The notes under the pieces are model-generated. The model saw nothing but the letters and a program-made list of their open reading frames with translations, searched no databases and had not been told where the DNA came from. Made by a program: the position numbers and the translations under genes. From contig JAYTXX010000097.1 of the NCBI GenBank assembly GCA_043742725.1, positions 1 to 60,846 of the forward strand: a DNA stretch of 60,846 bases. Reading direction: 5' to 3'. The DNA comes from Bacteroidota bacterium. GTDB lineage: Bacteria; Bacteroidota; Bacteroidia; 2-12-FULL-35-15. Position 1 is the stretch's first letter, and the number at the start of each line of letters is the position of its first letter. Positions 6,081 to 8,795 of the stretch are shown one piece after another.

Positions 6081-6214
6081 GAAATAATAGGAAGTAAAAA
6101 ATATTTTAAAAATTTCTATTATATTCGTATGTATGAAAAAGGAGTTTTTTTTTAGTTTATAAAACTTTCTCTATATTTAAGTTGTAAACTAGCTGGTCTG
6201 ACAGCTTAAAAATG

Positions 6215-6296
6215 ACAAAATTTGAAAATTAAATTTTTTATAAACAAGACAATCGATATTTTTTAATTATAGGCACAAAATTCGAAGATTAAATTT
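6215..6296. repeat. Two 22-bp imperfect direct repeats, 60 bp apart, in the leader of the 6416 operon
   Basis: acaaaatttgaaaattaaattt at 6215-6236 and acaaaattcgaagattaaattt at 6275-6296 (2 mismatches). A 13-bp palindrome attgataatcaat (about 6318-6330) and a (TA)n run (about 6344-6355) follow. Confidence 0.6.
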
Positions 6297-6415
6297 AAAA
6301 CTGTTTAATTGTAATTCATTGATAATCAATTTAATATATATATATTAAATGCAAAGATTTTAGAATGACGAATATTAAAAGATATTTTACTAATTTTAAA
6401 TTCAAATAACTCTTT

Positions 6416-7111
6416 ATGGATCTAATTGTTCCTGTTCATCAACTTGAAATCAGGTATACCTTTTTGTTAAACTTTAATGCAATCATTAAAGAAATCGCAT
6501 CGCCATTTGTTCCATTGGCAACAAATTTTAATTTCGAACAGGAAAATAGCACAAAGCATACAAAATTGACATTAACTTTTGCTAACGATTATTATTCAAT
6601 ATTTGTCACATATGATAGAATTATATTTCGCTATGAAGGAAACCCGGAAGAACTAAAAGCAAATAATTCTTTTTTTGAAGAACCATTTTTAAATATTTTT
6701 AATAAGTTAAAAGAACACAAGGACTTTGGAAAAGTAACGAATTTTTTATTTTATACTTTATATGTTAAACCAAAAGAAGAAGATAAGGAAGTTATCCTGG
6801 GAAATTTTCTTAAAGAGAATTTAGTTTTAAATAAAACAAATCGAATTATGTCTTCTCCGACAGATGTTTCTGTTATTTTAAATAAAAATGTTAATAATCA
6901 GCAAGTTCAAATTCGATTTGGACCTTATGTTGGAATGACAGATTTAGCAAGCAGGCACGCTGTTCCAATTTTTAGACAATTTGAAGGTCTTGACAAATAC
7001 GGTGAAATGGCCGAAGTTAGTATTACAGAAAGCTCACTTTCAAACTTCCCATTTTCTAAGTATAAAGAAACTTTAGCAGCATCTAATGATTTAATTTCTA
7101 ATCTTTGGTAA
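6416..7111 (+). CDS. Hypothetical protein (first gene of a three-gene operon)
   Basis: 231-aa ORF with no signal peptide, no TM segment and no motif I recognise. Coding is supported by the 1-nt spacing to the next ORF and the absence of competing ORFs. Confidence 0.6.
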   Translation: MDLIVPVHQLEIRYTFLLNFNAIIKEIASPFVPLATNFNFEQENSTKHTKLTLTFANDYYSIFVTYDRIIFRYEGNPEELKANNSFFEEPFLNIFNKLKEHKDFGKVTNFLFYTLYVKPKEEDKEVILGNFLKENLVLNKTNRIMSSPTDVSVILNKNVNNQQVQIRFGPYVGMTDLASRHAVPIFRQFEGLDKYGEMAEVSITESSLSNFPFSKYKETLAASNDLISNLW

Positions 7112-7112
7112 A

Positions 7113-7616
7113 ATGAGCAAGATTTTAGAAGAGCAATTTATGCGACTTGGTGAAGATATTTCATTATCTCCAATTCCGACTTTAAAAAAGGAGAATGAAG
7201 GAATTTCGATTGTTGATCCATCTGTTATTTCAGAAAGTGTCATTTCTGAGTTTATAAGTAAATCTTTTTTTAATAAAGCTGGTTTTATAGCGCACGAAAA
7301 ATGGGATACAAATATTAATATTCAAAGTAAAGTAACTGATTTTAATGGTGAATATGTAGAATGCTTGTGTTTAATGGATAAGGAGAACCATTATTTTGAA
7401 TATCGAAGCTTTCCTCGAATTCTATTTGACAATATTGACAATTTAAAGAATAAGCCGTATTTAATTTTGAATATTAAATCAAAAGCGAGTTCTATAAGAA
7501 TTGATGTTTCTGAAGGCGATAAAAGAGTGGAAAAAAAACTATTTGAATTAGAAGAAGATTGGGGGAAACTTGATGACTCGGGTTTAGAAACGCCATATAC
7601 GGGAATTGATATATGA
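7113..7616 (+). CDS. Hypothetical protein (second gene of the operon)
   Basis: 167-aa ORF. It starts 1 nt after the upstream stop, and its stop overlaps the next start (ATGA at 7613-7616). No recognisable motif. Confidence 0.6.
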   Translation: MSKILEEQFMRLGEDISLSPIPTLKKENEGISIVDPSVISESVISEFISKSFFNKAGFIAHEKWDTNINIQSKVTDFNGEYVECLCLMDKENHYFEYRSFPRILFDNIDNLKNKPYLILNIKSKASSIRIDVSEGDKRVEKKLFELEEDWGKLDDSGLETPYTGIDI

Positions 7617-8635
7617 TTACACTCACCTTTAAAAATGTTGATCAAGGAGATTCAATACTTTTAGAGTGGCAAAAAGATGGAATAGATAAAATTGCCATTA
7701 TTGATTGTAATCAGGCATTTAATACAAATCCCGTCTTAGAGCATATTATAACTAAAGGATATAGTAGAATCGAATTTTTATTACTCTCTCATCCACATTC
7801 GGATCATTTTTCTGGATTTACTAAATTAATACGGCACTGTATTGACCATGGAATAAAAATTGGACATTTCTTATCTACCTCGCCAATAAATAAAAATTAT
7901 TGGGAAATGGCATTTGACAATGCTTTTGCTAAAAATGAAACGCAAAAACTTTTTAAACTTCTACGAGAAGCACGAACGGCAATAGGAATGAAAACATCTT
8001 TCGTGCAAGGAGAATCTTTAAATCCACCGATAAAAATAGGTAATAATTATTTTTTTGAATTACTTGGTCCAACTGCAGTTGAACTTGATAAATTTATCAC
8101 GACTAAAGTTGTTGGTATAAATAATGAGGAGGAGAAAGGGAATAATCCATCAGCTAATTGGTTGTCTTCATTAATTAAAATATATACTGATGATACATGG
8201 TATATACTTTTGACGGCAGATGTTAATCCGGAATTACTTTTGGTTTATGGTCATGACAAAGATAAAACTGGCATTTTTAAAGGTAATCTTGTCTTAGGAC
8301 AATCGCCCCACCATGGTAGTAAGTTAAATCACAAGAACAGTTTTTGGAAAAATTTAAAAAGAAAAAAGGATAGTAGCGTTCCAATCGTATTTTCAGTTGG
8401 AAAGAATAATTATGGACATCCGTCTAAAGAAGCCGTTGAATTTTTTCAACGGAATAAATTTAAAATTTATTCGACCAATCCAACAGGAATCTTATCCAAA
8501 AATGTTTCGCCTCTGGGAAAATCAAATATAGCTCATGCAAGTACTTTTGGGCTGAAAATTTCCAAAAAAAATAATGATTTTGAAGGTGACAAAATATTTG
8601 AAATTGATATTAGTGGAAATGTAAAAAAAATGTAA
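7613..8635 (+). CDS. Stand-alone ComEC/Rec2-type metallo-beta-lactamase-fold hydrolase
   Basis: 340 aa. FKNVDQGDSILLEW...IAIIDCN resembles the DVGQGD motif of ComEC MBL domains. HxHxDH motif LLLSHPHSDHFSGF lies at nt 7790-7807. Later SPHHGSKLNH and VGKNNYGHPSKEAV resemble the ComEC HHGS and N.yGHP motifs. No TM channel domain is present. Confidence 0.75.
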   Translation: MITLTFKNVDQGDSILLEWQKDGIDKIAIIDCNQAFNTNPVLEHIITKGYSRIEFLLLSHPHSDHFSGFTKLIRHCIDHGIKIGHFLSTSPINKNYWEMAFDNAFAKNETQKLFKLLREARTAIGMKTSFVQGESLNPPIKIGNNYFFELLGPTAVELDKFITTKVVGINNEEEKGNNPSANWLSSLIKIYTDDTWYILLTADVNPELLLVYGHDKDKTGIFKGNLVLGQSPHHGSKLNHKNSFWKNLKRKKDSSVPIVFSVGKNNYGHPSKEAVEFFQRNKFKIYSTNPTGILSKNVSPLGKSNIAHASTFGLKISKKNNDFEGDKIFEIDISGNVKKM

Positions 8636-8795
8636 AAACTCCTTAAGCGTGAATTTGAAACATGGCAATATGTGTTAGCGCTTTGTTATAAATGCAATTT
8701 GTAAGTTTTAGAAGGTTTTATTCTCAAAAATAAAATTCTTTTAAATTTCAATTCCAGTATAGAATTAACTAATTTAGTTGCTCCAAAATTTACAA

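Follow-up and report, generated by a model that had tools for sequence, protein, structure and literature searches.

We describe here a three-gene cassette in contig JAYTXX010000097.1 of a Bacteroidota bacterium (GTDB lineage Bacteria; Bacteroidota; Bacteroidia; 2-12-FULL-35-15; assembly GCA_043742725.1). The stretch analysed, called the window below, comprises positions 1 to 60,846 of the forward strand (60,846 nucleotides), and coordinates without a locus handle refer to it. The cassette consists of three co-directional genes, named A, B and C, the last of which encodes a soluble metallo-beta-lactamase (MBL) of the ComEC type, and the second a protein with an oligonucleotide/oligosaccharide-binding (OB) fold:

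6416..7111, + strand: gene A, 231 amino acids (aa), isoelectric point (pI) 5.7; acidic two-lobed alpha/beta saddle; proposed sensor or input subunit
7113..7616, + strand: gene B, 167 aa, pI 4.8; OB-fold protein; proposed adaptor or gatekeeper of the nuclease
7613..8635, + strand: gene C, 340 aa, pI 9.2; soluble ComEC-type MBL; predicted metal-dependent DNase effector

All three open reading frames (ORFs) are intact. Between A and B lies a single base (7112), and the end of B overlaps the start of C by ATGA at 7613-7616, so that positions, gap and overlap are exactly those given by an earlier reading of this DNA, which was made from its letters only (the sequence-only reading). That reading had also seen no transmembrane segment in any of the three products and no signal peptide in the first two. 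Hydropathy agrees, and reveals neither feature in A, B or C: the maximum over 19 residues is 0.86-1.19 in these proteins, compared with 1.9 in two secreted neighbours.

A co-inherited unit at variable sites

The three genes are a co-inherited unit. Scans with hidden Markov models over all fetched loci recovered A, B and C in this order from 17 independent loci, whose chromosomal sites are unrelated and in which the genes overlap or nearly so (the window, L001, L002, L004, L016, L017, L025, L028, L096-L100 and L119-L122). Alignments show that A and B are homologous between loci, at 37-43% identity and with many invariant columns. When loci were anchored on divergent B proteins, A was found upstream and C downstream in five of five, and in P0224 nature has fused A and B into one protein. 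Such a recurrence of the triplet is far beyond chance, and the three-gene unit that had been proposed from gene spacing is borne out by this co-occurrence. A by itself looked orphan-like in a word-index search; the neighbourhoods of C homologues then revealed the three-gene layout. By profile search, the A family holds at least 21 proteins with 26 invariant columns and the B family 332 cluster representatives (E<=1e-3). A search for C gave 309 matches, which are stand-alone proteins of ~330 aa, mostly from Bacteroidota. A metagenome scan with the B profile returned a single locus.

Some members of these families depart from the common pattern. The cassette is not confined to Bacteroidota, as an A-B-C copy (L025) occurs in Fodinibius halophilus of the Balneolota; its A protein, at 277 aa, is longer, and only the part from residue 60 on matches the A profile. 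Two B-family representatives carry the B domain at the C-terminal end of a larger protein. In P0266 (347 aa) it follows a 240-aa region without annotation, and in P0285 (518 aa), which may be a chimeric gene call, it follows a part that looks phosphofructokinase-like by eye.

C was found in none of 24 same-genus genomes and none of 16 other genomes of the class, and the B profile had no match in 400 other genomes of the phylum. Given its absence from these congeners and that of B from the phylum set, we regard the cassette as a rare accessory module. Its neighbours differ at every A-B-C locus and include genes for ribonucleotide reductase, gyrA, MutS, ribosomal proteins, the Der GTPase and others. 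In the window it lies between an outer-membrane barrel gene and a gene for a protein sorted by the type IX secretion system (T9SS), after which comes lpxD. One congener (G002) keeps both flanking genes and has, between them (L011:1675-2959), two unrelated small ORFs of 81 and 129 aa; the interval between the barrel and T9SS genes (window 6081-8777) is variable, and four other congeners lack the downstream synteny. The accessory, island-like context that the sequence-only reading had perceived is upheld by this patchy distribution and by the variability of the interval in relatives. The GC content of the cassette is not deviant, and no convincing flanking repeats or target-site duplications were found around it. 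Searches of IMG/VR, INPHARED and PLSDB (2.9 million viral contigs, 50,697 phage records and 72,556 plasmids) returned no close relatives, and on this ground an origin of the cassette from a phage or plasmid was rejected.

Upstream of A lies a presumed promoter and regulatory region:

6081..6415, + strand: AT-rich leader, 335 bp, ~24% GC
6215..6236, + strand: 22-nt direct repeat, copy 1, in the leader; 20 of 22 bases identical to copy 2, at a spacing of 60 nt
6275..6296, + strand: 22-nt direct repeat, copy 2, in the leader

The leader had been described as a repeat-bearing, AT-rich stretch of 335 bp. Its length and composition hold, and the repeats amount to this single pair of direct repeats, which could be an operator. 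The leader has no match in Rfam, and sigma-70-like sites are not enriched in it (10 against 15.8 expected) by a scan that does not cover Bacteroidota promoters.

The three proteins and the B-C core

Profile comparison places C closest, among solved structures, to the MBL domains of ComEC (9ic4 at 4e-19, then 30bt and 9vcb, which are structures of full-length ComEC). Its earlier assignment as a stand-alone ComEC-type MBL is thus upheld, and C is homologous to the MBL nucleases associated with defence. With the ComEC/Rec2 domain of these structures it shares the fold and the HxHxDH, motif-4 Asp, HHG and G-H-P elements. In contrast to ComEC, it has neither the channel (no match to PF03772; maximum 19-residue hydropathy 0.86) nor the N-terminal OB domain, it carries a C-terminal extension and an insertion of ~95 residues, and its distribution is accessory. 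The insertion follows motif 2 (profile positions ~74-170) and is skipped in ComEC alignments. NCBIfam models of ComEC match C by their C-terminal MBL part only, at 18-21 bits against cut-offs of 190-969. On these sequence grounds C is predicted to be a metal-dependent DNase. The features of C and B that matter below are the following:

7790..7807, + strand: C H60-P-H62-S-D64-H65, metal site of MBL motif 2 (HxHxDH), without variation in all 45 family members
7862..8041, + strand: C residues 84-143, a portion of the insertion peculiar to the C family; the B tail is predicted to dock here
7874..7876, + strand: C Ser88, TCT codon; His in 42 of 45 family members (F-x-H-T motif)
7539..7613, + strand: B residues 143-167, the conserved amphipathic helix and tail at its C-terminus, in which F144 is invariant and W150, L153, L158 and P161 are conserved; predicted contact with C

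The sequence-only reading had credited C with the full motif set of the ComEC MBL domain. The four motifs that it quoted (N8-D13, H60-H65 or HPHSDH, S231-S236 and N266-P270) are indeed present and fall in invariant or near-invariant columns of a 45-member alignment; "full" was slightly overstated, in that the window copy has Ser88 in place of a near-invariant His. No other His is conserved between motifs 2 and 4, which makes the family's His at position 88 the candidate motif-3 metal ligand. The TCT codon is two base changes away from a His codon, hence not a single sequencing slip. The remaining metal-site residues (H60, H62, D64, H65, D203, H233, H234 and H269) are kept. Two of the 45 family members have Leu at position 88, and the aligned residue is Asn in the MBL of the phage-protective system DS-42, introduced below, so that Ser88 does not necessarily mean a loss of activity.

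A has no match in Pfam, NCBIfam, PHROGs or PADLOC and none among PDB sequence profiles, and the same libraries gave nothing meaningful for B. To this extent the earlier statement that the upstream proteins hold no recognisable motif stands, and neither protein matched a metabolic or competence pathway in these scans. The two proteins are not featureless, however, because A has a confident saddle fold and B an OB fold. The AlphaFold2 model of A (pLDDT 87.4, pTM 0.85) is a two-lobed alpha/beta saddle of no named family. Its nearest solved folds are the McsB/arginine-kinase catalytic domain (Z 7.8), TBP (Z 7.5), RepDE and AdoMetDC, and Foldseek also places it near the TBPs of giant viruses; closer still are unnamed Atlas clusters (TM-score 0.78), among them one from phages and one fused to P-loop kinase domains. 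We did not adopt A as a DNA binder of the TBP type: the fold resembles TBP, but A is acidic (pI 5.7), which makes such binding unlikely. The top match to McsB offers a guanidino-kinase-like enzyme as a lead only, since telling that fold from a TBP-like saddle would take coordinates or active-site mapping. The invariant polar residues of A suggest a ligand or catalytic site.

The model of B (pLDDT 85, above 95 in the barrel) comprises a disordered acidic N-terminal arm, a helix, a five-stranded OB barrel (residues 66-134) and a C-terminal amphipathic helix with a tail. The barrel matches EF-P/eIF5A (Z 6.5, root-mean-square deviation 2.3 Å), cold-shock domains, PriB, RPA and Pf3 SSB. When A, C and B were co-folded, with B as the tested partner, B scored an ipSAE of 0.48 against the other two, compared with 0.02 for the best control, a result that the tool rates as "weak support". 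It passes a mark that 58 of 80 solved complexes pass, as do 2 of 110 mismatched pairs; passing scores of 0.60 or under, however, belong to only 7 of the 80 solved complexes but to both passing mismatches. The confident contacts join residues 143-167 of B to residues 84-143 of C, inside the insertion that is absent from ComEC. The model thereby lends weak support to a docking of the C-terminal helix of B on a part of C that ComEC lacks.

What stands in front of B and C is not always A. A survey of 14 close C loci from named genomes found four of the A type and ten others. In six of the 14, the first protein is 740-910 aa long and combines an N-terminal MORC-like HATPase_c_3 domain with a C-terminal HATPase_c of the histidine-kinase type, to which two of the six add an EcoRII-N domain; the remaining four have a GAF-GAF-kinase protein, a shorter kinase, a patatin, or B and C only (one each). 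Where the first gene encodes a kinase-type protein or a patatin, B itself is longer. Pfam places a receiver domain ahead of the B domain in L023 (39.5 bits) and P0273 (27.4 bits, below the cut-off), and the extensions of L018-type B proteins carry receiver-like motifs with an invariant Asp, an assignment by motifs only. A single-sequence HH comparison of these long B proteins with the response regulator encoded in the window was uninformative. No A-like domain was found inside the kinase-type first genes, even with filters off. The type of partner clusters on the C tree. Because the sister loci swap A for kinase and receiver or for patatin, B and C appear to be the constant core, and the first gene an input that can be exchanged.

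The kinase- and patatin-type loci adjoin genes for AIPR, C5 DNA methylase (Dcm) and integrase. In Hymenobacter and Longitalea, large AIPR/AIPR_N abortive-infection proteins lie beside kinase-type B-C loci (L018:7962-10301, - strand, and L024:477-2498, + strand), the former locus also having a phage-type integrase at 1524-2525. In Flavobacterium sp. ACN2 (L022:1841-6972) a C5 cytosine DNA methylase, a dual-HATPase protein, a receiver-like B-domain protein and a ComEC-type MBL follow one another, the first two genes overlapping.

DS-42 and other MBL nuclease systems

The sequence-only reading could not match the cassette to a named system. This no longer holds, since DS-42 (PRO1) has the same three-gene layout and a homologous MBL (PMC13092281), although no homology of A and B to its partner proteins was detected. 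DS-42 is a three-gene system of an E. coli prophage from the DefensePredictor study (DeWeirdt et al., Science 2026; PMC13092281). Its proteins have 238, 190 and 363 aa, the last being a ComA/ComEC-like MBL hydrolase of the WP_001198055.1 type (supplement of PMC13092281). Against phage Bas1 it lowered the efficiency of plating (EOP) by ~1.1 log and gave small plaques, and it was counted as validated under a criterion of a ten-fold EOP drop or smaller plaques (PMC13092281). We recovered DS-42-type loci from viral contigs by a short degenerate motif, together with a protein search, and all of them (L123-L136) keep a layout of 238/190-202/361-383 aa.

The likeness between the two cassettes lies in architecture and effector. 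Both consist of three tightly spaced co-directional genes with the MBL last, of similar sizes (231/167/340 aa in the window, 238/190/363 aa in DS-42), and neither contains a protease, an ATPase or another known defence domain. The C profile matches the MBL of a DS-42-type locus (L123) in HMMER at 1.7e-25 and 83 bits, and C aligns with the DS-42 MBL in hhalign with a probability of 98.3% (E 1.3e-14, 285 columns), a remote relationship at 19% identity. The alignment runs through the insertion that ComEC lacks. In the Atlas, A and the first DS-42 protein both land near clusters without a name, of ~220-245 aa, whose proteins come from Pseudomonadota and phages; the same DUF3422 cluster appears in both lists. 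DS-42 protein 1 is also a feature-space neighbour of an Atlas cluster named "TIGR04255", the only link to that family. Membership of A in TIGR04255 was rejected, as neither A nor seven other A-family members nor DS-42 protein 1 matched its NCBIfam model at E<=1. The two cassettes differ in that DS-42 is prophage-borne in Enterobacteria, whereas the window cassette is chromosomal and occurs in Bacteroidota and Balneolota, and in that the middle DS-42 protein is basic in its central stretch and stops at the last strand predicted for it, lacking the acidic C-terminal helix of B. On architecture and effector sequence, a single DS-42 family is plausible.

ComEC-like MBLs have been described as Zn-dependent DNases in Hachiman, Avs and canu systems (PMC12799240; 10.1101/2025.11.14.688446). 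Three papers of 2025 present them as latent DNases that are gated by two insertions and activated by a partner protease of the trypsin-, caspase- or subtilisin-like type (including PMC12799240 and 10.1101/2025.11.14.688446), and MBL effectors have been recruited repeatedly (PMC12799240). The cassette resembles these protease-MBL modules (HamM of Hachiman, the Avs1/2/4-associated MBL, LmuA-MBL of Lamassu, the DRT-associated MBL and CanC of canu) in placing a stand-alone ComEC-like MBL next to a controller, and in having insertions relative to ComEC near the active site. In contrast, their MBL gene comes first and that of the window last, and the scores of the C family, at 41-61 bits, are far below the level of family members. 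Searches of A and B (Pfam, NCBIfam, PHROGs, PADLOC), of the flanks (Pfam) and of the neighbourhoods of the other loci revealed no trypsin-, caspase- or subtilisin-like protease, so that control of C would have to be non-proteolytic, through the OB-fold protein B.

A PADLOC check of the cassette gave no match for A or B and weak partial matches for C only (PDC-M48B at 48 bits, LmuA at 41 bits, RT-associated MBL at 31 bits). NCBIfam scores for C were low as well (Avs1a 16.5 bits against a cut-off of 420; 6A-MBL 15.3 bits against 220). Some members of the C family align over their full length to the PADLOC models of LmuA-MBL, PDC-M48B, RT-associated MBL and Avs1a, at 1e-13 to 1e-17. The PADLOC candidate PDC-M48 was discarded; it needs both PDC-M48A and PDC-M48B, and the cassette has only the weak partial PDC-M48B match of C.

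A further comparison is offered by Ambrosia, which consists of a methylase, a HATPase sensor kinase, a REC-wHTH protein and an HNH nuclease (10.1101/2025.09.30.679545). The likeness is limited to sister loci (L018-L026, L023 and L029), in which a GHKL/histidine kinase, a receiver-like protein and a nuclease occur together, with a methylase in first place in L022. The window cassette, in contrast, has no kinase, receiver or methylase, and in the sister loci the receiver is fused to the OB protein B rather than to a wHTH, the nuclease being an MBL rather than an HNH enzyme.

Possible roles of the cassette

We read A-B-C as a self-contained, horizontally mobile conflict cassette, most likely anti-phage and of the same kind as DS-42, and consider this reading probable by a small measure. 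It rests on the co-inheritance of the genes, the A-B fusion, the patchy distribution, the relation of C to ComEC and to defence MBLs including that of DS-42, and the exchange of A for other inputs in sister loci beside defence genes. The Psychroserpens copy, inside an island with an integrase and a Type ISP restriction-modification system, and the L002 copy, next to a ParE toxin-antitoxin pair, add to this, as does the weakly supported B-C contact. The broader proposal of the sequence-only reading, a defence or toxin-antitoxin-like role, is still the best reading of the module. In the mechanism that we propose, where the nuclease activity of C, its contact with B, sensing by A and the anti-phage role of the window copy are all things that we infer, C would be the effector, a ComEC-like metal-dependent DNase. 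B would be an acidic OB-fold adaptor whose C-terminal helix lies on the C-specific insertion beside the active site, and which gates the nuclease or couples it to an input. A would be the exchangeable input, a sensor subunit acting via B. Upon infection, A might change its state by binding a ligand, a protein or a nucleotide; this change would remodel the contact between B and C, and C would then degrade the DNA of the phage or, as abortive infection, that of the cell itself.

Several observations weigh against this reading. No PADLOC model matches A or B (E<=1), and most A-type loci, the window's own among them, have housekeeping neighbours and no defence island that can be recognised around them. 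The window copy carries Ser at the near-invariant His position 88. The barrel of B has no net charge and B as a whole is acidic (pI 4.8), so its OB fold may not bind nucleic acid. The complex prediction, with its low grade, contains no confident A-B interface, and the link between A and B consequently rests on the P0224 fusion and on co-inheritance. DS-42 itself protects weakly, against 1 of 24 phages (PMC13092281). Its relation to the cassette beyond the MBL is also without support from sequence: A has no HMMER match to DS-42 protein 1, and hhalign gives them a probability of 0.2% (single sequence) or 0.3% (profile to profile); B and DS-42 protein 2 reach 0.7-0.8%; and jackhmmer, run over 6,860 local ORFs, found no bridge that links A or B to the partner proteins of DS-42. 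For this reason it is unproven that the cassette as a whole shares its descent with DS-42, and the DS-42 MBL sits on a very long branch whose place in the tree is not settled.

A more specific proposal, which we put forward tentatively and hold to be possible rather than probable, is that B and C form a portable module in which an OB-fold adaptor holds a gated ComEC-like DNase that is switched without proteolysis. It would accept at least three unrelated inputs, namely A, a phosphorelay from a GHKL/histidine kinase to a receiver fused to B, and a patatin, and the module would represent a second, non-proteolytic licensing of MBL death nucleases, alongside the protease-MBL modules; the saddle of A would be a sensor fold of a new kind, which may bind nucleotides in view of its likeness to guanidino-kinase catalytic domains. 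Bacterial immunity has only lately been seen to use ComEC-like MBL nucleases widely as death effectors, and every solved mechanism needs a partner protease. Cassettes of the DS-42 type have no protease and their mechanism is unexplained, and the Bacteroidota lineage adds testable structure to them. What our analysis contributes is the B-C core, the exchange of A for kinase or receiver, and a predicted, testable contact between the B helix and the C insertion. If the core, the interchangeable input and the helix on the insertion are real, they would offer a route to understanding how such nucleases stay silent and are then released. The locus in itself is one more rare accessory cassette.

The cassette might alternatively have arisen by independent invention, an MBL having been recruited separately in Bacteroidota together with unrelated A and B proteins, so that only the effector is common to it and DS-42. 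Repeated recruitment of MBL effectors is known (PMC12799240), and such a history would account for the missing sequence and profile similarity between A and DS-42 protein 1 and between B and protein 2, and for the absence of the acidic C-terminal helix from the middle DS-42 protein; in single-sequence phmmer comparisons, moreover, the DS-42 MBL is no closer to the C family (37-39 bits) than to other stand-alone MBLs (45 bits for one from Clostridium). We nevertheless find it rather unlikely, as gene number, order, sizes and tight spacing are those of DS-42, the two MBLs align through an insertion that ComEC does not have, and the first proteins lie near similar unnamed clusters, with the DUF3422 cluster common to both lists. 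Somewhat less likely again is an addiction module of the toxin-antitoxin kind, in which C would be a DNase toxin, B a labile acidic antitoxin blocking the region of the active site, and A a regulator or chaperone, and which would persist by post-segregational killing or a stress response. Several features fit this: B is a small acidic protein whose N-terminal arm is disordered and which is predicted to contact C near its active site; C of the window copy is basic (pI 9.2); the genes overlap as in toxin-antitoxin operons; the leader repeat could be an operator; and at many sites the cassette stands alone among housekeeping genes, in L002 adjoining a ParE toxin-antitoxin pair. However, A is conserved no less strictly than B and C, and in P0224 it is joined to B in one protein, which would be unusual for an accessory regulator, and library scans found no recognisable DNA-binding domain in A or B, both of which are acidic. 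The replacement of A by sensor kinases and receivers in sister loci points to regulated signalling rather than simple neutralisation, and DS-42 was scored as phage-protective. The addiction reading also overlaps with the anti-phage one, as many toxin-antitoxin systems are defence systems.

The Ser88 substitution raises the question of whether the window copy is a decaying or inactive relic with an impaired nuclease, the residue lost being the candidate motif-3 metal ligand that is His in 42 of 45 members. We think this improbable: the three ORFs are intact and their junctions coupled, the rest of the metal site is retained, Asn occupies this position in phage-protective DS-42, and 2 of 45 members have Leu. 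A housekeeping or competence role, with C as a detached ComEC nuclease domain in DNA uptake or repair and B as its DNA-binding OB partner, is very unlikely. The closest solved relatives of C are ComEC MBL domains, the OB fold of B resembles that of single-strand-binding proteins, and the 91.6%-complete genome has no PF03772 match, all of which such a role would fit. A housekeeping module would, however, hardly be missing from 24 congeners and, as judged by B, from 400 genomes of the phylum, or occupy a different chromosomal site in every genome; a very long branch separates the C family from other ComEC-like MBLs, the barrel of B has no net positive charge, and sister loci lie in defence islands.

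Some minor observations concern the genomes that carry the cassette. The window genome (G000, 91.6% complete) gave no match to the ComEC channel domain PF03772, although the same search was positive in 10 of 14 controls, Bacteroides thetaiotaomicron among them; an incomplete assembly or genuine loss could account for this. Directly downstream of the closest relative of the cassette, three consecutive ORF6N-domain genes (L001:7410-8937) are followed by a gene for a 1173-aa unannotated protein, and this run suggests a remnant of a mobile element or prophage. Near another A-B-C copy, on a JGI contig (L099, 3497-6864 and 11124-14545), are genes for an HSDR_N_2 protein, an EVE-domain protein and a PIF1-family helicase paired with a 239-aa unannotated protein.

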